Source of the DNA: Owenia fusiformis
Taxonomy: Eukaryota
DNA: 64,000 nt
NCBI GenBank assembly: GCA_903813345.2
Contig: CAIIXF020000001.1
Location: 27,156,001 to 27,220,000 of the forward strand
Direction of reading: 5' to 3'
Part shown: one piece after another, positions 5,478 to 37,410 of the stretch
Position numbering within the stretch: position 1 is the first letter of the stretch
How the letters are laid out: each line of letters begins with the position of its first letter
Translations under genes and position numbers: made by a program
Notes under the pieces: generated by a model
Databases searched by the model: none
What the model was told of the DNA's origin: nothing
What the model saw: the letters and a program-made list of their open reading frames with translations, nothing else

Positions 5478-5692
5478 AAATCTACTAAAACAAAATTATG
5501 CTCAAATAAAGTTTTTCTAGGCTTATTTTAAATATCATTCAATCCAATAGGTAACAATGATACATCATTGTAATTTGATCGAGGAATCTTCAATTTCAAA
5601 TAAGCTCCTAAAAAGAAATATAAGATAAGTTTAAGATTTTTTTGTTTCCTATATGATCAAATAATTTTTAAGCAAATTCAAGTAATTCTTAC

Positions 5693-7756
5693 CAGGCAAT
5701 GTGGTTGTTTCTGTGGTTATTTGGGCCCCTTTGGTGGTTACTGCAGAACCATCAGTGGTTACTTTAGCCTCTTCAGTGGTTACTACAACCCCTTTAGTGG
5801 TAAGTGCAGCCTCATCAGTGGTAATTGCAGCTCCATCAGTGGTTACTGCAGCCCCATCAGTGGTTACTTTAGCCTCTTCAGTGGTTAGTACAGCCTCTTT
5901 AGTAGTAAGTGAGGCCCCATCAGTGCTTATTGCAGCTCCATCAGTGGTTATTGAGGCCAAATCAGTGGTTACTGCAGCCCCATCAGTGGTTACTGCAGCC
6001 CTTTTAGTGGTAACTGCAGCTCCATCAGTGGTTACTGCAGCCCCATCAGTGGTTACTGCAGCCCCATCAGTGGTTACTGCAGCCTCTTTAGTGGTAAGTG
6101 AGGCCCCATCAGTGGTTAGTACAGCCCCTTCAGTGGTTACTACAACCCCTTTAGTGGTAAGTGCAGTCTCATCAGTGGTAACTGCAGCTCCATCAGTGCT
6201 TACTGCAGCCCCATCAGTGCTTACTGCAGCCCCATCAGTGGTTACTGCAGGCTCTTTAGTGGTAAGTGAGGCCCCATCAGTGGTTACTGCAGCTCCATCA
6301 GTGGTTACTGCGGCCCCATCAGTGGTTACTGCAGCCCCATCAGTGGTTACTGCAGCCTCTTTAGTAGTAAGTGAGGCCCCATCAGTGGTTAGTACAGCCC
6401 CTTCAGTGGTTACTACAACCCCTTTAGTGGTAAGTGCAGTCTCATCAGTGGTAACTGCAGCTCCATCAGTGCTTACTGCAGCCCCATCAGTGCTTACTGC
6501 AGCCCCATCAGTGGTTACTGCAGGCTCTTTAGTGGTAAGTGAGGCCCCATCAGTGGTTACTGCAGCTCCATCAGTGGTTACTGAGGCCCCATCAGTGGTT
6601 ACTGCAGCCCCATCAGTGATTCCTGTAACCCCTTCAGTAGTTACTGCAGTCTTATCAGTGGTAACTGCAGCCCCATCAGTGGTTACTGCAGCCCCATCGG
6701 TGGTTACTGCAGCTCCTTCAGTGGTTACTGCGGCCCCATCAGTGGTTACTGCAGCCCCATCAGTGGTTACTGCAGCTCCTTCAGTGGTTACTGCGGCCCC
6801 ATCAGTGGTAACTGCAGCCCCAGCAGTAGTTACTGCAGCCCGATCAGTGGTTACTGCGGCCCCATCAGTGGTTACTGCAGCCTCTTCAGTGGTTAGTACA
6901 GCCTCTTTAGTGGTAAGTGAGGCCCCATCAGTGGTTACTGCAGCCCCATCAGTGGTTACTGCAGCCCAACCAGTAGTTACTGCAGCCTGAGCAGTGGTTA
7001 CTGCAGCCCCATCAGTGGTTACTGCAGCCCCATCAGTGGTTACTGCAGCCCCATCAGTAGTTACTGCAGCCCGATCAGTGGTTACTGCAGCCCCATCAGT
7101 GGTTACTGCAGCCCGATCAGAGGTTACTGCAACCCCATCAGTGGTTACTGCAGCCCCATCAGTGGTTACTGCAGCCCCATCAGTAGTTACTGCAGCCCGA
7201 TCAGTGGTTACTGCAGCCCCATCAGTGGTTACTGCAGCCCGATCAGAGGTTACTGCGGCCCCATCAGTGGTCACTGCAGCCCGATCAGTGGTTACTGCGG
7301 CCCCATCAGTGGTTACTGCGGCCCCATCAGTAGTTACCGCAGCCCCATCAGTAGTTCCAGCAGCCCCATCAGTAGTTACTGCAGCCCGATCAGTGGTTAC
7401 TGCAGCCCCATCAGTAGTTACTGCAGCCCGATCAGTAGTTACTGCAGCCGGATCAGTGGTTACTGCAGCCCCATCAGTAGTTACTGCAGCCCCATCAGTA
7501 GTTACTGCAGCCCCATCAGTAGTTACTGCAGCCCGATCAGTGGTTACTGCGGCCCCATCAGTAGTTACTGCAGCCCCTTTAGTAGTTATTGCAGCCCCAT
7601 CAGTAGTTACTGCAGCCCCATCTGTGGTTACTGCAGCCCCATCAGTGGTCACTGCAGCCCCTTCAGTAGTTATTACTACCCCTTCACTGGTCACTGCTGC
7701 TCCTTCTGTGGTTACTCTAGTCCCTTCAGTAGTAATACCTTGTATGACTGTCGTGT
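5693..7756 (-). CDS. Giant mucin-like protein, exon 4 (2,064 bp, 688 codons); about 95 heptads VTTDGAA
   Basis: Acceptor tactcacattgtaccatttccAG|AC at 7758-7757; donor CCTG|GTAAGA at 5692-5691; phase 1-1; no stop before the donor, so the gene should continue downstream (leftwards). Confidence 0.85.
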
Positions 7757-8544
7757 CTGGAAATGGTACAATGTGAGTAATTATGGTCATTTAATAATAT
7801 GGGACTTGGCAGTTCTGATTTGATGTAATAAATGGTACCATGGGTACTGGGCTCACTTGATACCCATACATTTTAATTATACAAATAGAAGCAATAATTC
7901 CTGAACTTGGCTGCAAAATTTTTGTCCAGACTTTAATTTCATGCTAAAGTGACGGCCCTTTTGAATTTTTCTAGTTATTTTTTTCTAGACTTACTACATA
8001 TCTGGAGATATAATGCAACTCCAAACGATAATTCCTTAGCTTTGGCTTCAAAATCAAAAGTGATATTTGCCACCGGACAAAAGTGGTGGCCATTTTGATT
8101 TTTTTAATAATCTATATTGAGATTTTTACACCTTATTGGTTATACTGTACATAATATGAGTATATACTTGTAAAAATGCATGTTGAGTCAAAGCTGAATT
8201 TTGTGCAACAAAAATCACAGCCATTTTAAAAATACAAGATTTTGAACCAGGAGTTATTGGTTTATAAAATAATATATAAAAATAACTTTGAACAGGTATA
8301 CTACTGACAGAGGTTTTTAAATGTGTCAGACAGGTAGGCAGTGAGTGATTGCAATAGCTCACAATGTGAGCTAATAAAAACCGAAATTGAAAATAGATGG
8401 GAATGGGGAATTAGAGTGCAAGTTATTTTTACTACTACAAAATATTAAACTGCATGCAACTAGATGCAGGAGAAATTAGTTTGAATCTACTTTATTAGTT
8501 CATGCCTGATACATTGTTAAGTAAAATAACATGCGTGTGAGTAC

Positions 8545-11500
8545 CTTGTTTGGTATATGTAGGGTTAGTAATATCAGTAAACTCATGCGTTGTAATTTCA
8601 GCTGGTGCAGTGGTTATTTCTGATTCAGTGGTTATTTCAGCTGCTCCAGTGGTTATTTCAACTCCTTCTGTGGTAATTTCAGCTAATGCACTGGTTATTT
8701 CAGCTGATTCAGTGGTTATTTCAGCTGCTCCAGTGGTTATTTCAACTCCTTCTGTGGTAATTTCAGCTGATGCACTGGTTATTTCAGCTCCTTTTGTGGT
8801 AATTTCAGCTGCTCTAGTGGTTATATCAGCTGTTCCAGTGGTTATTTCAGCTGCTCCAGTAGTTATTTCAGCTGCTCCAGTGGATATTTCAGCTGGTGTA
8901 CTAGTGATTACAGCTTCTTCTGTGGTAGTTCCAGCCGCTCCAGTGGTTATTTCAGAGGCTCTAGTAGTTATTTCAGTTGCTCCAGTGGTTATTCCAGCTG
9001 GTGTGCTGGTTATTTCAGCTCCTTCTGTGGTTATTTCAGCTGATGCACTGGTTATTCCAGCTCCTTCAGTGGTTATTTCAGCTGGTGCACTGGTTATTTC
9101 AACTCCTTCCGTGGTCATTTCAGCTGGTGAACTGGTTAATCCAGCTCCATCAGTGGTAATTTCAGTTGATGCACTGGTTATTTCAGCTGGTGCACTGGTC
9201 ATTTCAGCTTCTTTTGTTGTAATTTCAGATTGCGCACTGGTTATTTCAGCTATTTCTGTGGTTGTTTCAGCTGCTCCAGTGGTTATTTCAGCTTGTGAAC
9301 TGGTTATTTCAGCTTCTTTTGTTGTAATTTCAGCTGGTGCACTGGTTATTTCAGCTCCTTCACTGGTTATTTCAGCTGGTAAACTGGTAAGTTCAGCTTC
9401 TTTTGTGGTTATTTCAGATGGTTCACTGGTAATTTCACCTCCTTCTGTGGTTATTTCAGCTGGTGCACTGGTTATTTCAACTCCTTCTGTGGTCATTTCA
9501 GCTGGTGAACTGGTTAATCCAGCTCCATCAGTGGTAATTTCAGTTGATGCACTGGTTATTTCAGCTGGTGCACTGGTCATTTCAGCTTCTTTTGTTGTAA
9601 TTTCAGATTGTGCACTGGTTATATCAGCTCCTTCTGTGGTAATTTCAGCTGGTGCACTGGTTATTTCAGCTTCTTTTGTTGTAATTTCAGATGGTGCACT
9701 GGTTATTTCAGCTTCTTTTGTTGTAATTTCAGATGGTGCACTGGTTATTTCAGCTTCTTTTGTTGTAATTTCAGATGGTGCACTGGTTATTTCAGCTTCT
9801 TTTGTTGTGATTTCAGATGGTGCACTGGTTATTTCAGCTTCTTTTGTTGTAATTTCAGATTGTGCGCTGGTTATTTCAGCTCCTTCTGTGGTAATTTCAG
9901 CTGGTGCACTGGTTATTTCAGCTGGTGCACTGGTCATTTCAGCTTCTTTTGTTGTAATTTCAGATGGTGCACTGGTTATTTCAGCTTCTTTTGTTGTAAT
10001 TTCAGATGGTGCACTGGTTATTTCAGCTTCTTTTGTTGTGATTTCAGATGGTGCACTGGTTATTTCAGCTTCTTTTGTTGTAATTTCCGATTGTGTGCTG
10101 GTTATTTCAGCTCCTTCTGTGGTAATTTCAGCTGGTGCACTGGTTATTTCAGCTGGTGCACTGGTTATTTCAGCTTCTTTTGTTGTAATTCCAGATGGTG
10201 CACTGGTTATTTCACCTTCTTTTGTTGTAATTTCAGATGGTGCACTGGTTATTTCAGCTTCTTTTGTTGTAATTTCAGATGGTGCACTGGTTATTTCAGC
10301 TTCTTTTGTTGTAATTTCAGATGGTATACTGGTTATTTCAGCTTCTTTTGTTGTAATTTCAGATGGTGCACTGGTTATTTCAGCTTCTTTTGTTGTAATT
10401 TCAGATGGTGCACTGGTTATTTCAGCTTCTTTTGTTGTGATTTCAGATGGTGCACTGGTTATTTCAGCTTCTTTTGTTGTAATTTCAGATTGTGCACTGG
10501 TTATTTCAGCTATTTCTGTGGTTTTTTCAGCTTCTTTTGTTGTAATTTCAGATGGTGCACTGGTTATTTCAGTTTCTTTTGTTGTAATTTCAGATGATGC
10601 ACTGGTTATTTCAGCTCCTACTGTGGTAATTTCAGATGGTGCACTGGTTATTTCAGCTTCTTTTGATGTAATTTCATATGGTGCACTGGTTATTTCAACT
10701 CCATCTGTGGTGATTTCAGCTGGTGCACTGGTTATTTCAGCTCCTTCAGTGGTTATTTCAGCTGGTAAACTGGATAGTTCATCTTCTTTTGTGGTTATTT
10801 CAGATGGTTCACTGGTTATTTTAACTCCTTCTGTGGTAATTTCAGCTGGTGCACTGGTTATTTCAGCTCCTTTAGTGGTAATTTCAGCTGCTGCACTGGT
10901 AATTTCAGTTTTTTTGGTGGTGATTTCAGCTGGTTCACTGGTTATACCAGGTATTTCAGTGGTTATTTCAACTTGTTCTCTAGTGGTTATTTCAGCTACT
11001 GTGGTGGTTATTTCAGCTGCCCCAGTGGTAATTTCAGCAGAGTCTGTGGTTATTTCAGCTCCTTCAGTAGTTATTTCAGCTGATCCAGTGGATATTTGAG
11101 CTGGTGCAGTGGTTATTTCAGCTCCTTTAGTGGTTATTTCAGCTGCTCCAGTAGTTACTTCCACTGCTCCAGTGGTAATTTCAGCAGGGTCAGTAGTTAT
11201 TTCCACTGCTCCAGTGGTTATTTCAGCTCCTTCAGTGGTTATTTCAGCTGGTGCACTGGTTATTTCAGCTCCTTCAGTAGTTATTTCAGCTGATCCAGTG
11301 GTTATTTCAGCAGGGTCAGTTGTTATTTCAGCTGCTCCAGTGGTCATTTCAGCTGATCCAGTGGTTAATTCAGCTGGTAAACTGGTTATTTCAGCTGCCC
11401 CACTAGTTATTTCCACTGCTCCAGTGGTTATTTCAGCAGTGTCAGTTGTTATTTCAGCTGCTCCAGTGGTCATTTCAGCAGGATCAGTGGTTATTTCAGG

Positions 11501-14500
11501 TCCTTCAGTAGTTATTTCCACTGCTCCAGTGGTTATTTCAGCTGGTGCACTGGTTATTTCAGCTCCTACTGTGGTAATGTCAGCTGGTGCACTGGTTTTT
11601 TCAGCTTCCCCAGTAGTTATTTCCACTGCTCCAGTGGTTATTTCAGCAGGGTCAGTTGTTATTTCAGCTGATCTTGTGGTCATTTCAGCAGGATCAGTAG
11701 TTATTTCAGGTCCTTCAGTAGTTATTTCCACTGCTGCAGTGGTTATTTCAGCTGGTGCACTGGTTCTCTCAGCTGCCCCAGTAGTTATTTCAACTGCACC
11801 AGTGGTTATTTCAGCAGGGTCAGTTGTTATTTCAGCTGCTCCAGTGGTCATTTCAGCAGGATCAGTGGTTATTTCAGGTCCTTCAGTAGTTATTTCAGCT
11901 GCCCCAGTAGTTATTTCCACTGCACCAGTGGTTATTTCAGCAGGATCAGTGGTTATTTCAGCAGGGTCAGTGGTAATTTTAGCTGCTCCAGTGGTCATTT
12001 CAGCAGGATCAGTGGTTATTTCAGCTCCTTTAGTGGTTATTTCAGCTGCTCCAGTACTTATTTCCACTGCTCCAGTGGTTATTTTAGCAGGGTCAGTAGT
12101 TATTTCCACTGCTCTAGTGGTTATTTCAGCTCCTTCAGTGGTTATTCCAGCTGGTGCACTGGTTATTTCAGCTCCTTCGGTAGTTATTTCAGCTGATCCA
12201 GTGGTTAATTCAGCTTGTGCACTGGTTATTTCAGCTCCTTCAGTAGTTATTTCAGCTGATCCAGTGGTTATTTCAGCAGGGTCAGTTGTTGATTCAGCTG
12301 CTCCAGTGGTCATTTCAGCTGATCCAGTGGTTAATTCAGCTGGTGCACTTGTTATTTCAGCTCCTACTGTGGTAATTTCAGCTGGCAAACTGGTTATTTC
12401 AACTGCCCCACTAGTTATTTCCACTGCTCCAGTGGTTATTTCAGCAGGGTCAGTTGTTATTTCAGCTGCTCCAGTGGTCATTTCAGCAGGATCAGTGGTT
12501 ACTTCAGGTCCTTCAGTAGTTATTTCCACTGCTCCAGTGGTTATTTCAGCTGGTGCACTGGTTATTTCAGCTCCTACTGTGGTAATGTCAGCTGGTGCAC
12601 TGGTTTTTTCAGCTGCCCCACTAGTTATTTCCACTGCTCCAGTGGTTATTTCAGCAGGGTCAGTTGTTATTTCAGCTGCTCCAGTGGTCATTTCAGCAGG
12701 ATCAGTGGTTATTTCAGGTCCTTCAGTAGTTATTTCCACTGCTCCAGTGGTTAATTCAGCTGGTGCACTTGTTATTTCAGCTCCTACTGTGGTAATTTCA
12801 GCTGGTAAACTGGTTATTTCAGCTGCCCCACTAGTTATTTCCACTGATCCAGTGGTTATTTCAGCAGGGTCAGTTGTTATTTCAGCTTTTCCAGTGGTCA
12901 TTTCAGCAGGATCAGTGGTTATTTCAGGTCCTTCAGTAGTTATTTCAGCTGCCCCAGTAGTTATTTCCACTGCTCCAGTGGTTATTTCAGCAGGATCAGT
13001 GGTTATTTCAGCTGCCCCAGTAGTTATTTCAGGTCCTTCAGTAGTTATTTCCAATGCTCCAGTGGTTAATTCAGCTGGTGCACTTGTTATTTCAGCTCCT
13101 ACTGTGGTAATTTCAGCTGGTAAACTGGTTATTTCAGCTGCCCCAGTAGTTATTTCAGCTGGTGCACTGGTTATTTCAGCTGCCCCAGTAGTTATTTCCA
13201 CTGCTCCAGTGGTTAGTTCAGCTGCTCTAGTAGTGATTTCAGCAGGAGCAGTGGTTATTTCGGGTCCTTCAGTAGTTATTTCCACTGCTCCAGTGGTTAT
13301 TTCAGCTGGTGCACTGGTTATTTCAGCTGCCCCAGTAGTTAATTCCACTGCTGCAGTGGTTATTTCAGCAGGTGCACTGGTTATCTCAGCTGACCCAGTA
13401 GTTATTTTAACTGCTCCAGTGGTTATTTCAGCTGCTCTAGTAGTTATTTCAGCGGAATCAGTGGTTATTTCAGCTGCTCCAGTGGTCATTTCAGCTGGTG
13501 CACTGGTTATTTCAGCTGCCCTAGTAGTTATTTCCACTGCTCCAGTGGTTATTTCAGCTGCTCTAGTGGTCATTTCAGCAGGATCAGTGGTTATTTCAGG
13601 TCCTTTAGTAGTTATTTCAGCTGCACCAGTAGTAATTTCCACTGCTCCAGTGGTTATTTCAGCAGGGTCAGTAGTTATTTTAGCTGATCTTGTGGTCATT
13701 TCAGCAGGATCAGTGGTTATTTCAGGTCCTTCAGTAGTTATTATCACTGCTCCAGTGGTTATTTCAGCTTGTGCACTGGTTATCTCAGCTGCCCCAGTAG
13801 TTATTTCCACTGCTCCAGTAGTCATTTCAGCAGGATCGGTGGTTATTTCAGCAGGGTCAGTGGTTATTTCGAATGCTCCTGTGGTCATTTCAGCAGGATC
13901 AGTGGTTATTTCAGCTGCCCCAGTAGTTATTTCCACTGCTCCAGTGGTTATTTCAGCAGGGTCAGTGGTTATTTCAGCTGCTCTAGTGGTCATTTCAGGT
14001 CCTTCAGTAGTTATTTCAGCTGCCCCAGTAGTTATTTCCACTGCTCTAGTGGTTCTTTCAGCAGGGTCAGTGGTTATTTCAGCTGCTCCAGTGGTCATTT
14101 CAGCAGGATCAGTGGTTATTGCAGGTCCTTCAGTAGTTATTTCAGCTGCCCCAGTAGTTATTTCCACTGCTCCAGTGGTTATTTCAGCAGGATCAGTGGT
14201 TATTTCAGCTGCCCCAGTAGTTATTTCCACTGCTCCAGTGGTTATTTCAGCAGGGTCAGTGGTTATTTCAGCTGCTCTAGTGGTCATTTCAGGTCCTTCA
14301 GTAGTTATTTCAGCTGCCCCAGTAGTTATTTCCACTGCTCTAGTGGTTCTTTCAGCAGGGTCAGTGGTTATTTCAGCTGCTCCAGTGGTCATTTCAGCAG
14401 GATCAGTGGTTATTTCAGGTCCTTCAGTAGTTATTTCAGCTGCCCCAGTAGTTATTTCCACTGCTCCAGTGGTCATTTCAGCAGGATCAGTGGTTATTTC

Positions 14501-17500
14501 AGGTCCTTCAGTAGTTATTTCCACTGCTCCAGTGGTTATTTCAGCTGCTCTAGTGGTCATTTCAGCAGGATCAGTGGTTATTTCAGGTCCTTTAGTAGTT
14601 ATTTCAGCTGCACCAGTAGTAATTTCCACTGCTCCAGTGGTTATTTCAGCAGGGTCAGTAGTTATTTTAGCTGATCTTGTGGTCATTTCAGCAGGATCAG
14701 TGGTTATTTCAGCTGCCCCAGTAGTTAATTCCACTGCTGCAGTGGTTATTTCAGCAGGTGCACTGGTTATCTCAGCTGACCCAGTAGTTATTTTAACTGC
14801 TCCAGTGGTTATTTCAGCTGCTCTAGTAGTTATTTCAGCGGAATCAGTGGTTATTTCAGCTGCTCCAGTGGTCATTTCAGCTGGTGCACTGGTTATTTCA
14901 GCTGCCCTAGAAGTTATTTCCACTGCTCCAGTGGTTATTTCAGCTGCTCTAGTGGTCATTTCAGCAGGATCAGTGGTTATTTCAGGTCCTTTCGTAGTTA
15001 TTTCAGCTGCACCAGTAGTAATTTCCACTGCTCCAGTGGTTATTTCAGCAGGGTCAGTAGTTATTTTAGCTGATCTTGTGGTCATTTCAGCAGGATCAGT
15101 GGTTATTTCAGGTCCTTCAGTAGTTATTATCACTGCTCCAGTGGTTATTTCAGCTTGTGCACTGGTTATCTCAGCTGCCCCAGTAGTTATTTCCACTGCT
15201 CCAGTAGTCATTTCAGCAGGATCGGTGGTTATTTCAGCAGGGTCAGTGGTTATTTCGAATGCTCCTGTGGTCATTTCAGCAGGATCAGTGGTTATTTCAG
15301 CTGCCCCAGTAGTTATTTCCACTGCTCCAGTGGTTATTTCAGCAGGGTCAGTGGTTATTTCAGCTGCTCTAGTGGTCATTTCAGGTCCTTCAGTAGTTAT
15401 TTCAGCTGCCCCAGTAGTTATTTCCACTGCTCTAGTGGTTCTTTCAGCAGGGTCAGTGGTTATTTCAGGTCCTTCAGTAGTTATTTCAGCTGCCCCAGTA
15501 GTTATTTCCACTGCTCCAGTGGTTATTTCAGCAGGATCAGTGGTTATTTCAGCTGCCCCAGTAGTTATTTCCACTGCTCCAGTGGTTATTTCAGCAGGGT
15601 CAGTGGTTATTTCAGCTGCTCTAGTGGTCATTTCAGGTCCTTCAGTAGTTATTTCAGCTGCCCCAGTAGTTATTTCCACTGCTCTAGTGGTTCTTTCAGC
15701 AGGGTCAGTGGTTATTTCAGCTGCTCCAGTGGTCATTTCAGCAGGATCAGTGGTTATTTCAGGTCCTTCAGTAGTTATTTCAGCTGCCCCAGTAGTTATT
15801 TCCACTGCTCCAGTGGTCATTTCAGCAGGATCAGTGGTTATTTCAGGTCCTTCAGTTGTTATTTCCACTGCTCCAGTGGTTATTTCAGCTGCTCTAGTGG
15901 TCATTTCAGCAGGATCAGTGGTTATTTCAGGTCCTTCAGTAGTTATTTCAGCTGCACCAGTAGTAATTTCCACTGCTCCAGTGGTTATTTCAGCAGGGTC
16001 AGTAGTTATTTTATCTGATCTTGTGGTCATTTCAGCAGGATCAGTGGTTATTTCAGGTCCTTCAGTAGTTATTATCACTGCTCCAGTGGTTATTTCAGCT
16101 GGTGCACTGGTTATCTCAGCTGCCCCAGTAGTTATTTCCACTGCTCCAGTAGTCATTTCAGCAGGATCAGTGGTTATTTTAGCAGGGTCAGTGGTTATTT
16201 CAAATGCTCCCGTGGTCATTTCAGCAGGATCAGTGGTTATTTCAGCTGTCCCAGTAGTTATTTCCACTGCTCCAGTGGTTATTTCAGCAGGGTCAGTGGT
16301 TATTTCGGCTGCTCTAGTGGTCATTTCAGGTCCTTCAGTAGTTATTTCAGCTGCCCCAGTAGTTATTTCCACTGCTCTGGTGGTTCTTTCAGCAGGGTCA
16401 GTGGTTATTTCAGCTGCTCTAGTGGTCATTTCAGCAGGATCAGTGGTTATTTCAGGTCCTTCAGTAGTTATTTCAGCTGCCCCAGTAGTTATTTCCACTG
16501 CTCCAGTGGTTATTTCAGCAGGGTCAGTAGTTATTATAGCTGATCCAGTGGTTATTTCAACTGCTCTAGTGGTCATTTCAGCAGGATCAGTGGTTATTTC
16601 AGCTGCCCTAGTAGTTATTTCCACTGCTCCAGTGGTTATTTCAGCAGGGTCAGTGGTTATTTCAGCTGATCTTGTGGTCATTTCAGCAGGATCAGTAGTT
16701 ATCTCAGGTCCTTCGGTAGAAATTTCAGCTGCCCCAGTAGTTATTTCCACTGCTCCAGTGGTTATTTCAGCAGGGTCAGTAGTTATTTCAGCTGATCCAG
16801 TGGTTATTTCAACTGCTCCAGTGGTTATTTCAGCAGGGTCAGTTGTTATTTCAGCTTCTGCAGTGGTTATTTCAGCAGGGTCAGTGGTAATTCCAGCTTC
16901 TCCAGTGGTCATTTCTGCAGGATCAGTGGTTATTTCAGCTCCTTCAGTAGTTATTTCCACTGCTCCAGTGGTTATTTCAGCAGGGTCAGTTGTTATTTCA
17001 GCTGCTCCAGTGGTCATTTCAGCAGGATCAGTGGTTATTTCAGGTCCTTCAGTAGTTATTTCAGTTGCACCAGTAGTAATTTCCACTGCTCCAGTGGTTA
17101 TTTCAGCAGGGTCAGTATTTATTTTAGCTGATCTTGTGGTCATTTCAGCAGGATCAGTGGTTATTACAGCTCCTTCAGTAGTTATTATCATTGCTCCAGT
17201 GGTTATTTCAGCTGGTGCACTGGTTATCTCAGCTGCCCCAGTAGTTATTTCCACTGCTCCAGTAGTCATTTCAGCAGGATCAGTGGTTATTTCAGCAGGG
17301 TCAGTGGTTATTTCGAATGCTCCCGTGGTCATTTCAGCAGGATCAGTGGTTATTTCAGCAGCCCCAGTAGTTATTTCCACTGTTCCAGTGGTTATTTCAG
17401 CAGGGTCAGTAGTTATTTCAGCTGCTCTAGTGGTCATTTCAGCAGGATCAGTGGTTATTTCAGGTCCTTCAGTAGTTATTTCAGCTGCCCTAGTAGTTAT

Positions 17501-19128
17501 TTCAACTGCTCCAGTGGTTATTTCAGCAGGGTCAGTGGTTATTTCAGCTGCCCTAGTAGTTATTTCAGCGGCTCTAGTGGTCATTTCAGCAGGATCAGTG
17601 GTTATTTCAGGTCCTTCAGTAGTTATATCAGTTGCCCCAGTAGTTATTTCCACTGCTCCAGTGGTTATTTCAGCACGGTCAGTAGTTATTTTAGCTGATC
17701 CAGTGGTTATTTCAACTGCTCTAGTGGTTATTTCAGCAGGATCACTGGTTATTTCAGCTGCCCTAGTAGTTATTTCCACTGCTCCAGTGGTTATTTCAGC
17801 AGAGCCAGTGGTTATTTCAGCTGCCCTAGTAGTTATTTCCACTGCTCCAGTGGTTATTTCAGCAGGGTCAGTAGTTATTTCAGCTGATCCAGTAGTTATT
17901 TCAACTGCTCCAGTGGTCATTTCAGCAGGATCAGTGGTTATTTCAGCTGCCCTAGTAGTTATTTCCACTGTTCTAGTGGTTATTTCAGCAGGACCAGTGG
18001 TTATTTCAGGTCCTTCAGTAGTTATTTTAGCTGCCCCAGTAGTTATTTCCACTGCTCCAGTAGTTATTTCCACTGCTCCAGTGGTTATTTCAGCTGCTCC
18101 AGTGGTTATTTCAGCTGCTTCAGTTGTCATTTCAGCTGATCCAGTGGATATTTCAGCTGCTTTAGTGGTCATTTCAAGGTCAGTGGTTATTTCAGCTTGT
18201 GCACTGGTTATTTCAGCTACTTCTGTGGTAATTTCAACTGCTCCAGTGGTTATTTCAGCTGATCCAGTGGATATTTCAGCTGGTCCAGTGCTCGTTTCAG
18301 TTAGTGCACTGGTTATTTCAGCTTCTTCAGTGGTAATTTCAGCTGGTGTGCTGGTGATTTCAGGTACTTCAGTGGTCATTTCAGCAGCTCTAGTGGTTGT
18401 TTCAGCTGCTTCAGTGGTAATTGCAGCAGGGTAGGTGGTTATTTCAGCTCCTTCAGTAGTTATTTCAGCTGATCCAGTGATAATTTCAGCAGAGTCGGTG
18501 GTTATTTCAGCTCCTTCAGTAGTTATTGCAGCTGATTCAGTGGTTATTTCAGCTGGTGCAGTGGTTATTTCAGCTCCTTTTGTGGTTATGTCAGCAATGT
18601 CAGTGGTTATTTCAGGTCCTTCAGTAGTTATTTCAGCTGGTACACTGGTTATTTCAGTTCCCTTTGTGGTGATTTCATCTGGTGCACTGGTTATTTCTGC
18701 TGCTCCCGTGGTGATTTCAGCTGCTCTGGTGGATATTTCATCTGTTCGAGTGGTCATTTCAACAAGGTCAGTGGTTATTTCAGCTCCTTCAGTAGATATT
18801 TCAGCTTCTCCAGTGGTTATTTCAGCTATTTTAGTTGTGAAATCAGTATGTGCAGTGGTTCTTTCAGCTGGTGCACTGGTTATTTCAGCGGCCCCAGTGG
18901 TTACTTCAGAAGCTCCAGTGGTTACTTCAGAAGCTCCAGTGGTTACTTCAGAAGCTCTAGTGGTTACTTCAGAAGCTCTAGTGGTTATTTCAGCAGCCCC
19001 AGTGGTTACTTCAAAAGCTCTAGTGGTTACTTCAGAAGCTCCAGTGGTTATTTCAGCAGCTCCAGTGGTTTTTTCAGCTGATCCAGAGGTTATTTCAGTT
19101 GTTACAGTGGTAATTGGATCAGTGGTAT
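8545..19128 (-). CDS. Giant mucin-like protein, exon 3 (10,584 bp, 3,528 codons); about 500 heptads EITT(G/D/E/R/K)xA with an EITSAPSEITTKEA sub-domain
   Basis: Frame is open from 19128, upstream of the ORF-track Met at 18757; acceptor TACTAATttgcataccttacAG|AT with a canonical-looking branch point; donor CAAG|GTACTC at 8544-8543; phase 1-1; 21-bp unit. Confidence 0.88.
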
Positions 19129-19376
19129 CTGTAAGGTATGCAAATTAGTATTTTTTGTTAGTAACAAAGATAATCACGTTAGTAATAGACATGAATATGT
19201 ACATTACATATTAAGTGCATCAAACTCATTAGTATAACTTATTATGATATATTTGAGGTTATAAAAAGTTTAAGGTCATGAAAAGCAGTCAAAGGATGTT
19301 GAAGCTATTAAGACAAGCTTTGGTATAGGAAGCTATAGATTTATCTTAATCAAACTAAGAATGAATCTGTTAATAC

Positions 19377-28300: not shown

Positions 28301-29993
28301 GATGTTGTCTGATCCCCAGTGGTCATTGAATCAGATGTTGTCTGGGCTACTGTGGTCATTGTATCAGATGTTGTCTGACCTTTTGTGGTCATTGTATTAG
28401 ATGTTGTCTGGGCTACTGTTGGCATTGTATCAGATGTTGTCTGACCTTCTGTGGTCATTGTATCAGATGTTGTCTGACCTTCTGTGGTCATTGTATCAAA
28501 TGTTGTCTGATCTACTGTGGTCAATGTATCAGATGTTGTCTGACCTTCTGTTGTCATTGCATCAGATGTTGTCTGGGCTTCTGTGGTCATTGTATCAGAT
28601 GTTGTCTGATCTACTGTGGTCATTGTATCAGATGTTGTCTGATCTACTGTGGTCATTGTATCAGATGTTGTCTGACCTTCTGTCGTCATTGCATCAGATG
28701 TTGTCTGGGCTTCTGTGGTCATTGTATCAGATGTTGTCTGATCTACTGTGGTCATTGTATCAAATGTTGTCTCGGCTACTGTGGTCATTGTGTCAGAAGT
28801 TGTCTGATCTCTTGTGGTCATTGTATCTGATGTTGTCTGACCATCTGTGGTCATTGAATCAGATGTTGTCTGATCCCCAGTGGTCATTGAATCAGATGTT
28901 GTCTGGGCTTCTTTGGTCATTGTATCGGATGTTGTCTGACCATCTGTGGTCATTGTATCAGATGATGTCTGACCTACTGTGGTCATTGTATCCGATGTTG
29001 TCTGACCATCTGTGGTCATTGAATCAGATGTTGTCTGTCCTCCTGTTGTCATTGCATCGGATGTTGTCTGACCATCTGTGGTCATTGTATCAGATGTTGT
29101 CTGACCTACTGTGGTCATTGTATCAGATGTTGTCTGGGCTACTATGGTCATTGTATCAGATGTTGTCTGGGCTACTGTGGTCATCGTATCAGATGTTGTC
29201 TGACCTTCTGTGGTCATTGTATCAGATGTTTTCTGACCTTCTGTGGTCATTGTATATGATGTTGTCTGACCATCTGTGGTCATTGTATCAGATGTTGTCT
29301 GGGCTACTGTGGTCATCGTATCAGATGTTGTCTGATCTTCTGTGGTCATTGTATCAGATGTTGTCTGACCTTCTGTGGTCATTGTATCAGATGTTGTCTG
29401 GGCTACTGTGGTCATCGTATCAGATGTTGTCTGTCCTCCTGTTGTCATTGCATCAGATGTTTTCTGACCTTCTGTGGTCATTGTATATGATGTTGTCTGA
29501 CCATCTGTGGTCATTGCATCGGATGTTCTCTGGGCTTCTGTGGTCATTGTGTAATATGCTGTCTGGGCTACTGTGGTCATTGTATCAGATGTTGTCTGAC
29601 CTACTGTGGTCATTGTATCAGATGTTGTCTGACCTACTGTGGTCATTGTATTAGATGTTGTCTGACCTACTGTGGTCATTGTATCAGATGGTGTCTGACC
29701 TTCTGTGGTCATTGTATCAGATGTTGTCTGACCTTCTGTGGTTATTGATTCAGATGTTGTCTGGTCTACTCTGGTTGTTGTTTCAGATGTTGAATGGTCT
29801 AATGTGGTCATTGTATCAGATGTTGTCTGACCTACAGTGGTCATTGTATTAGATGTTGTCTGGTCTATTGTTGTCGTTGTATCAGATGTTGTCTGGTCTA
29901 CTGTGGTGATTTTTATGTTAGTTGTGCTATCTGTGGCATCTAACTCTGTGGAATATATAGTACTGTATTCAGGCATGCTGTTTGAAGAAAAAT
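19377..29993 (-). CDS. Giant mucin-like protein, exon 2 (10,617 bp, 3,539 codons); about 320 copies of 11-aa repeat QTTSDTMTTEG
   Basis: Stop-free ORF; 33-bp unit (plus strand tgtatcagatgttgtctgaccttctgtggtcat); acceptor tatttttgcAG|AT at 29995-29994; donor CTAG|GTATTA at 19376-19375; phase 1-1. Confidence 0.88.
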
Positions 29994-30682
29994 CTGCAAA
30001 AATACTTATCTTTAGATAGAAGAAAGAGCTGTTCCAAGAAATGAACTTAGTGACGAATATTCTCAGAAATAAAATAGTCAAATCAAATCATGCAAGTCTA
30101 AAATCTATTACATGCAAGAAAATCTCATACTTTATTGTATTATGTACAGTTAGTAATTTGAATGCCAAGTATGAATTGATTTGGAATGTTTTTACTTTGT
30201 ACCCGTTGTCATACCTGAGTTTTGTATAACATTAACAGACACTGAATTAAATCACATGTACATCATATTTATAGATACATGTAGATGTCACTTTTTTAGC
30301 ATTACAAATGACTTTTTGTTAGTTAGTTCAGAAGTGAACAGCGACAATTGGAACATTCATTTATTTTAAAAACATTTCATCCATTATCTGGATTATTTTT
30401 GAGGGATGTTCAATAAACATCTCTCATTTACATTTTTTAGAAATTGAAGGCAGAATCGAATAAAGTTAAGAAACAATATAGAAAAAATCATGTCATTTTC
30501 AACAAGACTTATTCCAAATCTTGAATGAAATGGTGAAATCTACTCCATTCTCATGATTATGCTACTCTAATTTAAAAAGGTCAAATATGTTCTTCCAATT
30601 TGTAATTATATATTTGATACAGCATGATCTTTGTTTGTGTTTTGATGAAGAAAAGAAATTGATTCACATGCTAAGTCCAAAG

Positions 30683-31270
30683 GTGTCCTTCTTACTCCTT
30701 GGAAAAGGGAAATATATGAAGGGAAAAGTGGTGAAGTTTTATGGCAGTAAGGTTTCCATTAATAAAGTGTCTTTCTTACTCTCTGGTTGAGGGAAATATA
30801 TGAAGGGAAAAGTGGTGAAGTTTTATGGCAGTAAGGATTCCATTAATAAAGTGTCTTTCTTACTCTCTGGTTGAGGGAAATATATGAAGGGAAAAGTGGT
30901 GAAGTTTTATGGTAGTAAGGATTCCATTAATAAAGTGTCTTTCTTACTCTCTGGTTGAGGGAAATATATGAAGGGACAAGTGGTGAAGTTTTATGGCAGT
31001 AAGGATTCCATTAATAAAGTGTCTTTCTTACTCTCTGGTTGAGGGAAATATATGAAGGGAAAAGTGGTCAAGTTTATGGCAGTAAGGATTCCATTAATAA
31101 ATAAAGTGTCTTTCTTACTCTCTGGTTGAGGGAAATATATGAAGGGAAAAGTGGTGAAGTTTTATGGCAGTAAGGATTTCATTAATAAAGTGTCTTTCTT
31201 ACTCTCTGGTTGAGGGAAATATATGAAGGGAAAAGTGGTGAAGTTCTATGGCAGTAAGGATTGCATTAAT
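30683..31270. repeat. 84-bp minisatellite, about 7 copies, in mucin intron 1
   Basis: gagggaaatatatgaagggaaaagtggtgaag (minor variants) recurs at 30789, 30873, 30957, 31041, 31128 and 31212. Confidence 0.92.
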
Positions 31271-34241
31271 ATGAGAAAAGTCACCATCAAGTTTTTTGCA
31301 TTAAAACAATGCGGTACTTTGTGACAGATCGACACAATATGTCACCATTTCTTGGTGGTGAAATTATAAAGACAAGAGGTGAAGTAACTCAGGGCCAGAA
31401 AATGAAGTGGTAATATAGGATCCGGGTGAAAGTATTAAAGGTTCTCAGATTCCTCCTGCTTTACCCATTCAACATCACTGGTCTTTATTCTTGCTTAATT
31501 AACTGTAACATATTTGGTAATTATTAATTTTGCCAAAAAGTACATATTGTGTTGACCAAGCCCCTTAATTTTCAAAAACTGGAAATGGGTTATTATTCAT
31601 GGAATTGATACCAGTGGTTTATTGCACCTACTACTCCAAATAAGTCAACATAGAACAATCCCTTATTAATTTATAACTAATTGATGACCATATGTAATAA
31701 ACAGTGAAATCACTTAAGATATTTCTTAAATGTCTCACACCCTCCAAAGTCACGAAGGTATATATCTTAATTGAATGTTAATGTTAGATTAGAGCAAAGT
31801 ACCAGTTCACACTTTCACTTGATTGAGTCATTATTTCTTATGTCACAATATCGAATGCAAAGACAACTATGAGTGGAATGTAAATACATGTGTAAAAAAT
31901 AAATATTTGAAAATGTGTCAAAAAGTTTCAAATCATCAAGTTCCAATGACGTTTAGTATACTATCAGCATTCAAGATTCCAAAATTAATTAACAGTTTTA
32001 ACAAATACAAATCTTGATAAACATCCTGTTGTTTTTTTCACCAAAAAGGTCACCTTGACAAAGAGCTAGATATACATACCCGTGTACATCTACATAGGAA
32101 GGTGTGAAGTTATATGTTTTATGATGAATCATTTTTTGAATCCTCATTCAAAATTCAAATAAATGGATTTTATACGACAGAAATTCTCTGATTGAAATGT
32201 ATGTTTTTGTGTTTTAAAATCCAATTCATGTAAATGATGAAATTTATTATTTTGATCATTGGTAATAACTGACATCTAACGAATTATAGTTCAAATATAT
32301 CATGCCAGATACACGTCAACCTATAATGCAGACATTGATTTGAAATTAACAAGATAGCGCATATTTCAAGATTATCTGAAAAATCTCAAGTCAAATTTTA
32401 AAAAGTTTATAAACACAATCTGAGTACCAAATTCTGATTTTCATTGGTTTCTTGTTATCTATTCTAGACCTTTCAACTAGAAAAATACATCAAAAGCTAG
32501 TTATTCAAGATTTGGTAAAAAATGTTCAAAACACTTTAAAAACGACATGTGGTAAATTAAGTTTCAAACATAATCATAATGGAGCATGATAAATGTTAGA
32601 TCTTCAGAATGTATGGCTTATTTTTGGCATAAATTTAAAATATTGTTGTTTTGCAACTTTCTATCTACCACTGAGGACATTATTGCAAAATTCAAAGAGA
32701 AGAGTGAGTTTATAAACTAGTAAAGTGTCTACCAAGGCAATAAGTGCCTTTAAATCCCACCCAAATTATCAGATTTTCTGAAAATCACAAAATTATTTTT
32801 TGAGAATCATAATTTACAATGATTTTTGAATTTAAATCATAATGATTTTGATCCCTTGGGACAAATTGAACATGATAATTAAATGTATAACAGAAAAAAT
32901 TGAAATTAATTAGTTTGAAATCAAATCTTTTATTATAATCTGTGACTATCATTTATTTTTAATTACATATACGATGTGAGGAACTTCTTCAAACTGTGAT
33001 ATTTAGAGAAACAAAATTTGTATTAAAGTTTATTGGATACTATAAGCAAATTAAAATGGAGTAGTAGGGATAGAGCATATGTAGATTTGAGTCATTTTGA
33101 AATTGTCACAATTCTACAATATTTTTTGCTCTTGCCAGTTGTTTTCATATTATGCATAATTTTGATAATTAAAGGCCAACAGTTCTGACTTTGTCAATAA
33201 TCTGCAGGCCTGTCAACTTAAGAACACCTTCAGAACGACGCTTGTTTTTTTTATGTTTCGGCGTTCGTTTTTTTGGATGTTCTATAGAAATATTTTTGCT
33301 TGACAATAATCAAAAAAATAATAAAAATGCGTATTTGCATGACATATTCTGTCAAAAAAACTAGTGTGACTTCAATTTCTTCAGCAAATGCGTGACGAAT
33401 ACGCAAATTGTGGGACAGTTGATGGGCCTGAATCCGCAAAAGACTATAATAAGTCCATTTAAAGCAGATATATAATTCCAACAGTGATAGAATTGAATTA
33501 AGGATATAATTGAAACTTTATTTCAGGATGATCCTTACATCAGTACTGTCAACCCCCAAAGATTTTTTCGCGGGACAGATTTTTTAGACCCAGTGCCCAA
33601 AATTCGCGGGATTTTGCGGGACATCTACTAAATTCGCGGGATTTCGCGGAACATTGCGTGATTGCGCTTATAGGCCAATTTTTTTTATCAAATTCGCGTG
33701 ATTTCGCGGGACCATTCGAGGGACAAACACCCTAATTGCGGGACAGTAAACAGGTTTACCAGCAAAAACTTCATAGAGGGACAGATTTTCTAGAAAAAGT
33801 GCCCTAACTTTGCGGGATTTCGCGGGACATCCACCTAAATTTGCAGGATGTCCCGGGACATTCAAGGGATTTGCGTGATTTGGACTAATGTAAAAGCGTG
33901 TAAAAGTACTTGAATCAAACTTTCAGATACTGATTAATCAAATATAATGCACCGTTACATTGTAACTTAAATAAACGTCAACATAATTTCACAAAATACA
34001 CATAGAAATATTATTAAAATTTATTGTAATTTATCAAAAACAAAAACCATGCTTGAGGTGTGAGTATCGTAATCTAACACGAAATTCAAAAATTTGGAAC
34101 AATACTTTACACTTCTCTGCTTCTGGCGTCGTGACCAACTACTACCATACTGTAGGCATGGGCTTTCAATTGTAAGCCCATGATATAGGGGTTCGATTAA
34201 TCTACATCAAATTATAGGGAATGAGGTTACTTTTCTAGATA

Positions 34242-35008
34242 GGGTTTGTAGAAAAAACCGGGTACCTGGTAGTAAATCCTCCATGCTGGGTTCAAACTTT
34301 TTTTCTTTTTTTTTATTCCTTCATTCTTATTTATGTACATGTAAATGTAAATATAAATATGTACATGTAAATGTAATGCAATTAATAATATAAATAAAAT
34401 TTACGTAGACAAACTTGGTACCCGGTCGAAAAACCGGGTACCCAAAAAACGAAATATACGAATATACAACATAATTAGTTCATTAGAAAACGTGTAAGAT
34501 TTGTTTTGAATTTACAAAAATGTAACTTCCTTCAAAATTGAGCTAGAAGCTTCAAATAAAAAGCATTTTAAGCCTCTTTTCTTCCTCTATCATCATGGTC
34601 ATATTTCCATTAGTAATGAAGCACCATCACACCCTCTCCTGGCTACGCCAATGACATTGTAAGACGATTTGAATAACAAGACAAATCAATTTTACTCTAT
34701 TTTCAATGAGTTCGTATGTTGGCACGTGAACATAACCAATGAAAATATGGTCATTACGATAGAGGAAGAAAAGAGCCTTAAAATATGCTTTTTATTTGAA
34801 GCTTCTAGCTCAATTTTGAAGGATGTTACATACATTTTTGTAAATTCAAAACAAATCTTACACGTTTTCTGATAATCAAATTATGTTATACTCGTATATT
34901 CGTATTTTTCATTTTTTGGGTACCCGTTTTTTGACCGGGTACCGGGTACCAAGTTTGAACCCAGCATGGAGGATTTACTACCCGGTACCCGGTTTTTTCT
35001 ACAAACCC
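34242..35008. mobile_element. Foldback (Mutator/MULE-like) element nested in the hAT-like element
   Basis: Long inverted arms gggtttgtagaaaaaaccgggtacc... / ...ggtacccggttttttctacaaaccc; 10-bp direct repeat tttctagata on both flanks (34232-34241, 35009-35018). Confidence 0.82.
34300..34409 (-). mobile_element. Short poly(A)-tailed insertion with 7-bp TSD CAAACTT inside the foldback arm
   Basis: caaactt at 34293-34299 and 34410-34416; the segment is absent from the opposite arm; the minus strand ends with AATAAA motifs and an A-rich tail. Confidence 0.6.
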
Positions 35009-35530
35009 TTTCTAGATATCAGCGTCCATTTATTGTAACTCACGTTTGCTAACATTTGCTCAGTTCTGAGATGAAGGCCACACGGATAGTAAAAAGGCCA
35101 ACGTTGGAACTATTTGTGACCTACATCCCTATTGTCGTAATTAAAATGAAAGTTGAACCCTTCCTCTTTATTTTGATACCAAACAACAGCATGCTAGGTA
35201 CTTAAAATTAGGTAAACTTTACTCCTCAAAAGTGCAAAAACTTAGCTTCTTATATAAGATAAGATAATCACCATATAGGGGATTGCAACAATTTCGGAAA
35301 TTCGCGGAGGTCGAAAGCCACATTTGCGGGACTTCGCGGGACATTGCGGGACACGCGAATTAGCCTAATTTTGATCGAATTCGCGGGATAATCCCGCCAT
35401 TCGCGGGACACTTGACAGCTCTGTTACATTTTTAAGGATAAGCCTATATTGGAACAAATTGGTTCTAATGAATTTGGACATTTGTGCATCTTACATCTTT
35501 AATGAAATCCTTTTTTGATCAGAGATCTAA

Positions 35531-36199
35531 AGGTCCATGTGCAGTATGGCAAGTTCTTTTAGACGGTCATATCTTTCACCATGAGTACTTTCTGGCCATA
35601 AATACAATGGCTTTTATTAAAACAATATGTTTTCTTTCAAGTGAAGTCCCCATGATAGTAAAATATCAATCCAACTCTCTGAAAAATTATAGATTAGGAC
35701 CCCACCTTGTCACTTTTCTAAAAATGTAAGGCTTATTTTCTAAAAAGAGGATCTTGTTTTTCTTAATTTAAAAATATCAAAAGTTTCTTCTACACTATAT
35801 TAATAACTTCTGAAAAGGGGATGGGTATTATAATGCGATAAAGTTAAAAACCACATTTCCCATTTTATTTTCGAAAATTGATATCTTCAAAACTAGACTT
35901 TCAATACAATTCTACTTTTGAAGATGTTTTAGACCCCTGGCCTTGTTGAATAATCTTTTCATGCAATAAAAATCAGAAAAAGAAGATCCTCTTTTGAGCA
36001 AATAAGTTCAACATTTTGAAAAAATGGTTGATGTGGGGACCCTATTCATAATTTTTTGAATTATTCGATTGATCAGGGGGGGACTTCAATTGAAAGAAAA
36101 CACATTGTTTTAATAAAAACCACTGTATTTATGCCCAGAAAGTATTCATGGTGAAAGATATGACTGTCTAAAATCACTTGCCATACTGCACATGGACCT
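35531..36199. mobile_element. Palindromic foldback MITE (Kolobok-like AGG termini), about 670 bp
   Basis: aggtccatgtgcagtatggcaagt... / ...acttgccatactgcacatggacct; arms pair over about 250-300 bp; TSD degenerate. Confidence 0.75.
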
Positions 36200-36974
36200 T
36201 TTTTCAGAAAGCAAAAAAATCATAATCTCCACAATTTTAAACTAGCTTTCTCTTCCGATCCCTAAAGAGGTTGTTCTGATTTTTTGTTCTGATTTATAGA
36301 ATAGGTCATTTTAATGTTTAAGAAACTAACTGAGTAGTAGAGGCAATCACCATGGTATAACTATATGTGAATTTTCAATCAAGTTTCAGGTATATACAAA
36401 AGGTACATAAATGGAATACCTATAGTTTTATATCCTATAGTGATATATTTAAAAAAAAGTATATCAATTTGATTTAAAATAAACAACAGTTTTATCCATT
36501 CTGATGCCATTTTGAATTTAGCGACAATTTAGTTTGAATCAATCTCACATCAAAGAGGATCTGAGAAACTAAGAGAGGTCCCCAAAATTAAACATGCCCA
36601 AATTTCAAAACACTCCTGTTTTTCGAGCAATTTTTGTATTTGGGTTACCTCAGAGTCAGGGAGGATGAGTGAGTGAGGGAGGTTGGACCCCAGCTTTGCA
36701 AGAGTATAGTGTGATGAAAGTTCTTAATTATTCTTATGTATAGTAAGAATATAATTTATAGTAAGTGTAGCAATAATAGTAGAAGAATAGTAAGTGTAGG
36801 GTAAAGCAAAAGATCACATTATATTTTAGTGACCAGAGATCCCTTTTTAAATAAGGTAAAATTGTAAAGTACTATGGAGAACTTACCACTATTAAACCAT
36901 GCATTATATACACTACATGTTATACCAAATTCACACATTTTTATTTTAATTTTTTTTATTTTAATGTATCTTAC

Positions 36975-37410
36975 CAGAGGTTGTTTGAGCAGGAGGATTA
37001 TCTTCTGTTGTCATAGCAACTGTTCCTGTATCAGTTACAAGAGCAGTAGATTGACTATTTGACTCAGTGTCTGTAATAATACTTGAAACTTTCTCAGAGT
37101 TTGTGGTTATTTGACTAAGTGCAGTCTCTGAAGTTACTCTGGAATCTGTTGAAGCTGCTAATGTTATTTCAGCAACTGTTGTATCTAATTGAGCTGTAGT
37201 CTGACTCTGACTACTTGTGTTCATTTTTTGACTAGATCTAGTAGTGGAATGTGCCATAGTTACGGAATCGGTTGCTATAGTAACAGCTGAATCTGTCATA
37301 CCTTCTTGTGTCTCTTTAGTTAGTCCCAAAGTTGTTTCGCTTGATTCACCATTTTTTATTAATCCTAAATTGGCTACAAATGCCAGAAAAATATACATCC
37401 TTAACTCCAT
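36975..37410 (-). CDS. Giant mucin-like protein, coding exon 1 (signal peptide plus non-repetitive Ser/Thr-rich segment, 145 aa + 1 nt)
   Basis: ATG at 37410 in AAAATGG context; N-terminus MELRMYIFLAFVANLGLIKNGES is signal-peptide-like; followed by T/S-rich sequence; strong donor CTG|GTAAGA (GT at 36974-36973), phase 1, matching the next exon. Confidence 0.8.

Follow-up and report, generated by a model that had tools for sequence, protein, structure and literature searches.

A candidate giant mucin-like gene with three symmetric repeat exons in Owenia fusiformis

Does a run of giant, monotonous open reading frames (ORFs) on one strand represent a single gene, and if so, what kind of protein would that gene make? 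The question is raised by a stretch of 64,000 nucleotides (nt) of Owenia fusiformis DNA (assembly GCA_903813345.2, contig CAIIXF020000001.1, positions 27,156,001 to 27,220,000 of the forward strand), which is called the window here and in which positions are counted from the first letter. On its minus strand, stop-to-stop ORFs occupy 19333-30087 (3,584 amino acids, aa), 8495-19144 (3,549 aa) and 5649-7790 (713 aa), and their translations are monotonous Thr-rich repeats. The window is AT-rich, with a G+C content of about 30-34% outside the gene and 38-51% within it. An earlier note, made from the letters alone, had read these frames as parts of one modular mucin gene. It is considered here to be reasonably probable that the locus is one minus-strand gene for a secreted, O-glycosylated, polyanionic mucin-like brush, which would be non-gel-forming and an orphan.

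The gene model is built from four minus-strand segments. A short ORF (36964-37428) has a Met codon at 37410, with an in-frame stop just upstream of that ATG, and supplies the coding part of exon 1 (36975-37410), which is 436 nt long, or 145 codons plus 1 nt, and ends CTG/GTAAGA at 36975. Exon 2 (19377-29993; 10,617 nt, phase 1-1) begins at TTTGCAG/AT (29993) and ends CTAG/GTATTA at 19377; exon 3 (8545-19128; 10,584 nt, phase 1-1) begins at CTTACAG/AT (19128) and ends CAAG/GTACTC at 8545; exon 4 (5693-7756; 2,064 nt) begins at TTTCCAG/AC (7756) and ends CCTG/GTAAGA at 5693, a strong donor in which CTG/GTAAGA is identical to the donor of exon 1. These exons are separated by intron 1 (29994-36974; 6,981 nt, GT..AG) and by two shorter introns predicted from splice-site and phase logic, intron 2 (19129-19376; 248 nt) and intron 3 (7757-8544; 788 nt, from the donor AAG/GTACTC at 8545 to the acceptor at 7756).

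All GT and AG sites between the arrays and the nearest in-frame stops were enumerated. For exons 2 and 3, the stretch from the last in-frame stop to the exon-3 array offers a sole AG acceptor, and of the two candidate donors, both phase 1, the one at 19377 is better. Between exons 3 and 4 only one of the four GT sites is phase 1, namely the best-looking one at 8545, and all three acceptors are compatible with it. The tail of exon 4 holds a single GT, at 5693. When the four segments were joined by script, 436 + 10,617 + 10,584 + 2,064 = 23,701 nt were obtained, which is 7,900 codons plus 1 nt without a stop; the three junctions are all in phase 1, and an Asp codon arises at each. The splice sites, segment lengths, phase and Asp junctions given in the earlier note were thus reproduced exactly by direct reading and by the scripted join. 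Since the internal exons are multiples of three in length and phase 1-1, any subset of them splices in frame, and the codon made from G and AT or from G and AC is always Asp, which bears out the note's suggestion that blocks could be skipped without a frameshift. On this logic exons 2, 3 and 4 would be joined in one mRNA.

The first splice is seen in public sequencing data. Words from exon 1 were found in 20 public sequencing runs of one organism, of which four (X1, X2, X3 and X24) were mapped onto window positions 29800-37600, a range that covers the joint of exons 1 and 2. The earlier note had named the junction 36975/29993 as one to be checked, and one X1 contig (record 1, 786 nt, depth 13.8) contains it directly: letters 1-110 correspond to 29884-29993 and letters 111-738 to 36975-37600, with nothing between them, so that intron 1 is excised exactly. 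The depth of X1 is zero in the exon-flanking intron bins 30061-30582 and 36325-36846. This joint fixes the strand, the frame and the first intron, and the single gene proposed in the note is borne out at least for exons 1 and 2, which are transcribed and spliced in this contig.

The same contig informs the 5' end. Its colinear part makes 37411-37600 the 5' untranslated region (UTR) of exon 1, at least as far as 37600, and 48 further letters extend beyond that position. If these are colinear as well, the contig ends at about 37648, some 26 nt downstream of a TATAAA motif (37669-37674, minus strand) that is a candidate TATA box; this is suggestive only of a transcription start near 37.65 kb. The 5' UTR contains three upstream ATGs (37561, 37478 and 37460), each followed by a stop within two to five codons. 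The contigs of X1 and X3 differ from the window in the 5' UTR (for example at 37421, 37472 and 37548, with small insertions at 37470-37472), which indicates that the runs and the assembly derive from different individuals or strains. No difference is listed for these contigs in the 436-nt coding part of exon 1.

Intron 1 has features of its own. A tandem repeat of 84 nt x 7 with 94% identity lies at 30683-31271, where the contig depth is low in X1-X3. In a region of about 3.1 kb at about 33193-36324 the contigs of X2 and X3 reach extreme depths (up to about 30,000 for X3), and those of X1 a far lower one (up to about 150); the raw RNA reads of X24 cover both of its strands and show internal joints and many variant letters. 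No ORF of at least 75 aa with a Pfam match was found in it, and it looks like a high-copy transcribed repeat element.

At the 3' end several continuations are conceivable. A candidate short terminal exon (5528-5607, minus strand) has an acceptor TTTTTAG/GA at 5607, is separated from exon 4 by an 85-nt intron and is phase-1 compatible. It would encode Gly and 25 codons before a TAA at 5530-5528, and a polyA-like ATTAAA lies at 5286. If this exon were used, a protein of about 7,926 residues that lacks a C-terminal domain could be complete within the window; otherwise the gene would continue leftwards beyond the window. Without the donor at 5693 the ORF runs 14 codons more, to a stop at 5649-5651. 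No domain-like minus-strand ORF was found in window positions 1-5650. Just downstream of exon 4 lies a direct duplication of about 2.2 kb with 93% identity (1-2158 and 2689-4848), both copies of which contain repeated short ORFs and no recognisable coding exon.

The exons are almost entirely tandem arrays, which were delimited with Tandem Repeats Finder (TRF) and followed unit by unit with a register-tracking parse of codon variation. The exon-2 array (19411-29911, minus strand) consists of 33 nt x 318 according to TRF, or about 320 units, with 87% matches, 0% indels and the consensus QTTSDTMTTEG. The exon-3 array (8595-19115, minus strand) has a 21-nt-based unit, reported by TRF as 42/63, repeated about 500 times with 0% indels and the consensus AAEITTG; its higher order is 42/63/126 nt. 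The exon-4 array (5734-7730, minus strand) consists of 21 nt x 95 according to TRF, or about 95-98 units, with 0% indels and the consensus TTDGAAV. Together the arrays make up about 23.0 of the 23.7 kb of coding sequence (CDS), about 97% of its length. The three unit consensuses share a 9-nt core, ATG/ATA/GTA-ACC-ACA/ACT, which codes for M/I/V-T-T, and the last residues of exon 1 resemble a degenerate exon-2 unit. This suggests that the arrays may have arisen from one ancestral unit by exon duplication and were then homogenised separately. Within exon 2 (at a lag of about 2.5 kb) and within exon 3 there are repeated 600-nt blocks with 97-100% identity, which are either recent unequal exchanges or assembly effects.

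Whether such arrays are coding was judged from how they vary. The best antisense frames contain 34, 2 and 1 stops in exons 2, 3 and 4, against 0, 0 and 0 in the sense frames; as the antisense of exons 3 and 4 is nearly open, a long ORF in a repeat with a period of 3n is by itself weak evidence of coding. A simple ratio of synonymous to nonsynonymous changes against the unit consensus (0.58-1.0) did not discriminate, because the variation sits in two or three spacer codons: at the amino-acid level each unit varies only at two or three spacer residues (exon 2, E/V/G/D-G/A/D; exon 3, G-A-A). The register shifts within the arrays are all of +3 or -3 nt (one in exon 2, four in exon 3, none in exon 4). 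Positions 1 and 2 of the Thr codons are non-consensus in 0-6% of cases, and the third position of the ACC Thr codon in 21-32%. Taken together with the in-frame splice from a Met-initiated ORF, the shifts and the Thr codon pattern make coding much likelier than a non-coding minisatellite.

The visible 7,900 residues contain no Cys, as the earlier note had stated, and consist of T 33.2, A 11.3, E 9.5, S 7.1, D 6.8, G 6.4, I 6.1, M 4.5 and P 2.8%. Ser and Thr amount to 3,184 residues (2,621 Thr and 563 Ser), or 40.3%, with about 1,050 TT pairs, and there is a single N-glycosylation sequon. The three repeat exons differ in composition: exon 2 has T 41, S 10, D 10, M 8.4 and P 0.7%; exon 3 has T 26.5, A 16.5, E 16, I 12 and P 5.3%, with a net charge of -555; exon 4 has T 28, A 23, V 13, D 10 and P 0.6%. 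The polypeptide is about 805 kDa, with an isoelectric point (pI) of about 4, a net charge of about -1,090 and 16.4% Asp+Glu against 2.6% Lys+Arg. Its N-terminus has Arg4, a hydrophobic core of 14 residues (5-18) and then polar residues, with a maximum 11-residue Kyte-Doolittle mean of 2.31. Residues 1-21 (37348-37410) are therefore signal-peptide-like by inspection and hydropathy, and are followed in exon 1 by about 120 non-repetitive Thr/Ser-rich residues, in agreement with the note's signal peptide leading into Thr-rich sequence. No 19-residue window with a Kyte-Doolittle mean above 1.6 was found outside the N-terminus of the 7,900 residues.

Searches for relatives gave little. Pfam found no family above its curated cutoff in exons 1-3, and VWD, C8 and TIL domains were not found in exons 1-4; no credible Pfam domain is present in the visible part, which is in line with the note's statement that it lacks these and any globular domain. 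The exon-1 peptide had 0 matches among 1.84 billion representatives, in a library that may lack the source organism and with bias filters that penalise such sequence. A word-indexed search with the same peptide against proteins of 255-2000 aa gave none at E <= 1e-3, and residues 1-400 of exon 2 against proteins of 1945-6192 aa gave none at E <= 1e-5, where again the libraries may lack the source organism. The absence of relatives fits the earlier description of the gene as lineage-specific, and within the same limit of the libraries these blanks hint weakly at an orphan status. Four repeat peptides were not found in the full-text literature, and queries about comparable genes led only to the mucin studies cited here; within the main texts covered in this way, the gene was not found in print.

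The following sequence of events can be proposed from these properties. The predicted signal peptide would be cleaved and the protein would enter the secretory pathway. The three phase-1 symmetric exons would add three different tandem arrays and so produce a chain of about 7,900 residues, whose regularly spaced Thr doublets are predicted to carry dense O-glycosylation. Such a chain would form an extended and hydrated polyanionic bottle-brush that serves as a secreted surface coat or as a mucus or adhesive component. Without Cys there would be no disulfide polymerisation, and a network would come from entanglement, cations or glycan contacts. The arrays would expand, and their units would be kept alike, through unequal recombination that is held strictly to in-frame changes. 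Secretion, O-glycosylation and the role of the product are all deduced here from sequence.

A number of observations weigh against this reading. The joint 36975/29993 was found in only one of the four mapped runs, the library type of X1 is unrecorded, and the joint, which was seen in the contig mapping, is not among the 15 rows listed of the 19 in the joint table. The X3 contigs are unspliced at both sites (record 16, 29837-30042; record 23, from 37600 down to 36970, which extends 5 nt beyond the exon-1 donor) and are hence genomic or pre-mRNA. The X2 contigs have no depth on exon 1, and the raw RNA-seq run X24, of which about 12% was read, has no reads on exon 1 or on the start of exon 2. In principle, a retrocopy or a deletion allele could yield the same X1 contig. 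The junctions 19377/19128 and 8545/7756 and the donor at 5693 are predictions from splice sites and phase, the signal peptide call comes from inspection and hydropathy, and the array lengths may depend on the assembly. The remaining points concern proline and the folding of exons 3 and 4, and are taken up below.

The transcript evidence bears directly on the possibility that the blocks are used in separate mRNAs, either as transcripts that end after exon 2 or as alternative cassettes that yield several smaller products. The contig covers the joint of exons 1 and 2 only, the symmetric internal exons permit any subset in frame, and alternative splicing has been proposed to set the length of the mucin domain of chicken Muc13, which spans several exons, in the portion of that work considered here (Lang et al. 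2006, PMC1552070). However, exon 2 is open up to its donor, and reading on into the intron meets a stop after 14 codons. With lengths of 248 and 788 nt, introns 2 and 3 are short, and neither offers exons 3 or 4 a start codon with a signal peptide of their own. In addition, only one acceptor is available between exons 2 and 3, and the donors there match it in phase. Separate products are rated as unlikely, though they deserve to be kept in mind.

For the single mucin-like brush, the chemistry of exons 3 and 4 raises a further difficulty. Both have a fairly hydrophobic composition that places them on the folded side of a charge-hydropathy plot, so the protein may be partly structured, and they might instead fold into a regular beta-rich solenoid or fibre, so that the product would be a giant structural, adhesive or fibre protein in which exon 2 is perhaps a disordered spacer. 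AlphaFold2 was run on repeat segments of the two exons, with alignments made of internal repeats of the same protein. The models are all-beta, with strands every 7 residues in both segments, and their confidence is low: the mean predicted local distance difference test score (pLDDT) is 57 for exon 3 and 52 for exon 4, the predicted template modelling scores (pTM) are 0.48 and 0.42, and no residue reaches 90. Foldseek against PDB returned 0 matches at E <= 0.001 with these models, although the weak rows are all beta-solenoids. Structure predictors tend to draw solenoids for perfect repeats. The predictions are regarded as uninformative and as favouring neither disorder nor a fold.

The composition and the domain searches can be read in the same two ways. 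The 7-residue units are rich in Ile, Val, Ala and Thr with Gly or Asp turns, which would suit a beta structure, but exon 3 has a Glu once every 7 residues, and in a solenoid these like charges would come to lie on top of one another. There is a weak likeness to two Pfam families of beta-roll or beta-sheet repeats. LbR_Ice_bind was matched with 24.8 bits, which is under its cutoff of 30, and exon 4 scored 33 bits against DGF-1_beta-sheet (cutoff 22) with 0 significant individual stretches, a score that is read as compositional. Membership of a beta-solenoid or beta-roll family was considered and rejected on account of these two scores, the low confidence of the models and the lack of a Foldseek match at E <= 0.001. 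A regular beta fold of exons 3 and 4 is accordingly rated as distinctly improbable.

About as doubtful is a cassette-built "programmable" coat protein, in which chemically different blocks would be combined by alternative splicing so that length, charge and stiffness vary. The blocks would be a Met/Asp-rich disordered glyco-brush, a Glu/Ile-rich block and an Ala/Val-rich block, of which the latter two may be partly beta-structured.

The acidity of the chain suggests yet another role, namely that of a secreted polyanionic matrix protein that binds cations, is phosphorylated, or both, and acts in a biomineral, a cement or an egg coat. The excess of Asp and Glu over Lys and Arg, with the low pI and the large negative net charge given above, would be in keeping with this, as would the signal-peptide-like start and a proline content that is atypically low for mucin domains. 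However, Thr rather than Asp, Glu or Ser is the dominant and best-conserved residue, and Pfam found no known matrix-protein domain. The proposal overlaps with that of a mucin-like brush and is compatible with the charge without specific support, and it is held to be a poor candidate. Finally, it is scarcely credible that the arrays are non-coding minisatellites in a transcribed pseudogene or non-coding RNA whose open frame follows from the 3n periods: the nearly open antisense frames (2 stops in exon 3 and 1 in exon 4) and the lack of a homologue in the protein searches would allow it, but the 23.7 kb, made up of three different arrays with their unique flanks, contain 0 stops, shifts are only of plus or minus 3 nt, conservation at Thr positions 1 and 2 contrasts with variation at third positions, the signal-peptide-like ORF that starts at an ATG continues in frame into exon 2 after splicing, and four donor/acceptor pairs are all of one phase.

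If the secreted mucin-like brush is retained, it has to be asked in what sense the gene is a mucin. The cited parts of two studies give numerical screens: for Drosophila, S+T above 25%, at least 4 repeats and repeats over more than one third of the length (Syed et al. 2008, PMC2515642), and elsewhere more than 20% TS with exonic repeats (Pajic et al. 2022, PMC9417175). The gene lies within both sets of thresholds for S+T content, repeats and repeat share, as far as those parts of the two papers define them. In the Drosophila scheme, as the cited part gives it, repeats without prolines are "mucin-related" rather than mucin (PMC2515642). Here Pro accounts for 0.7% of exon 2 and 0.6% of exon 4, unlike in classical PTS domains, and reaches an appreciable share only in exon 3 (5.3%), which counts against the mucin assignment. 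Under that scheme exons 2 and 4 would be "mucin-related" and exon 3 would not, a comparison by criteria and not by sequence. The mucin label of the earlier note thus holds for S+T content, repeats and repeat share, and falls short for the near absence of Pro in exons 2 and 4.

Among the Drosophila mucins described in the cited part of the same paper, 9 resemble the gene here in having no conserved domain, and Muc14A, the largest, approaches human MUC16 in length (PMC2515642). The gene also resembles orphan mucins in the sense of Dekker et al., as treated in the cited part of PMC9417175, in its signal-peptide-like start, its Thr/Ser-rich exonic repeats, its lack of identified orthologues and its very large exons; the repeats of orphan mucins are described there as changing by copy-number variation. 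Compared with the salivary orphan mucins of that text, the 7,900 residues are far larger and carry three arrays in three giant exons instead of one. Compared with the orphan mucins covered there, two of the three arrays are nearly Pro-free, the protein is very acidic, exon 2 is Met-rich, and no precursor or relative was found.

The closest described analogue in style appears to be the jellyfish qniumucin, whose 8-residue unit VVETTAAP/VIETTAAP carries O-GalNAc on Thr, according to the cited parts of PMC2801673 and PMC8777159. Like it, exons 3 and 4 have a unit of 7-8 residues with one TT doublet, one acidic residue and an Ala/Val/Ile filler, and both proteins are almost pure repeat with low or no Cys, so that disulfide polymerisation is absent. 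The units differ (AAEITTG and TTDGAAV against VVETTAAP), Pro is present in every qniumucin unit, and the monomers of qniumucin reach up to 150 kDa in those sources against about 805 kDa of polypeptide here. The resemblance is one of style, set against the published unit, and does not imply homology.

The better-known classes of mucin are further away. Gel-forming mucins (MUC2/MUC5AC/MUC5B/MUC6) are likewise secreted, as is predicted here, and carry a central Thr-rich repeat domain whose exon measures about 10 kb. In contrast to them, the visible 7,900 residues have no VWD/C8/TIL, CysD or CK domains, and the absence of Cys makes disulfide multimerisation impossible for this part. As for transmembrane mucins, no SEA or EGF match in Pfam and no hydrophobic window beyond the N-terminus were found within the visible part. 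The chicken Muc13, as described in the cited part of PMC1552070, also has its mucin-type domain split across several exons, with one unit per near-identical exon and with SEA and transmembrane domains, whereas each exon here holds hundreds of units of its own type and neither domain was seen. In kind, the locus belongs with orphan giant mucin-like genes; what is unusual is the use of three giant symmetric exons with different arrays and a product that is Pro-poor, Met-rich and very acidic.

Elsewhere in the window, Rfam gave 0 matches over the whole stretch, and Pfam gave nothing above cutoff for the 28 other ORFs of at least 75 aa. On the same strand and upstream of the gene, a 151-residue open stretch (50925-51377, minus strand) is strongly enriched in Ser, Asp and Glu, carries short DVTT/EVTT motifs and has no Pfam match; it may be an exon of an upstream neighbour. 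Two arrays of one 44/87/131-nt unit, separated by about 90 nt (56405-56985 and 57074-57429; 87-94% by blastn on opposite strands), run in opposite orientations and form a large inverted repeat of tandem repeats with spurious ORFs of 130-240 aa on both strands. A satellite-like array of 146/291 nt (x 6.4 / 3.2) occupies 59250-60176, and its unit contains a palindromic motif of the GCCGCCATTTT / AAAATGGCGGCC type that also occurs singly at about 5050 and about 5330, downstream of the gene, and at about 8090, in intron 3.

On present evidence no new kind of system is revealed by this locus. Assemblies and annotations usually collapse, mask or split giant repeat genes, and for this reason little is known at the gene level about the chief structural proteins of invertebrate mucus, coats and glues. 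Here, a fully open CDS of 23.7 kb is available with its first splice verified, and its three arrays allow in-frame evolution to be traced unit by unit. If the blocks were indeed combined as cassettes, they would represent a Cys-free and Pro-poor route to a mucus-like or fibrous material, unlike that of gel-forming and SEA-type mucins. If the product is confirmed, the gene would provide a gene-level example of a simple cysteine-free mucin in the style of qniumucin, which would be useful for the study of mucus networks that do not depend on disulfides and as a template for recombinant mucin-like materials.

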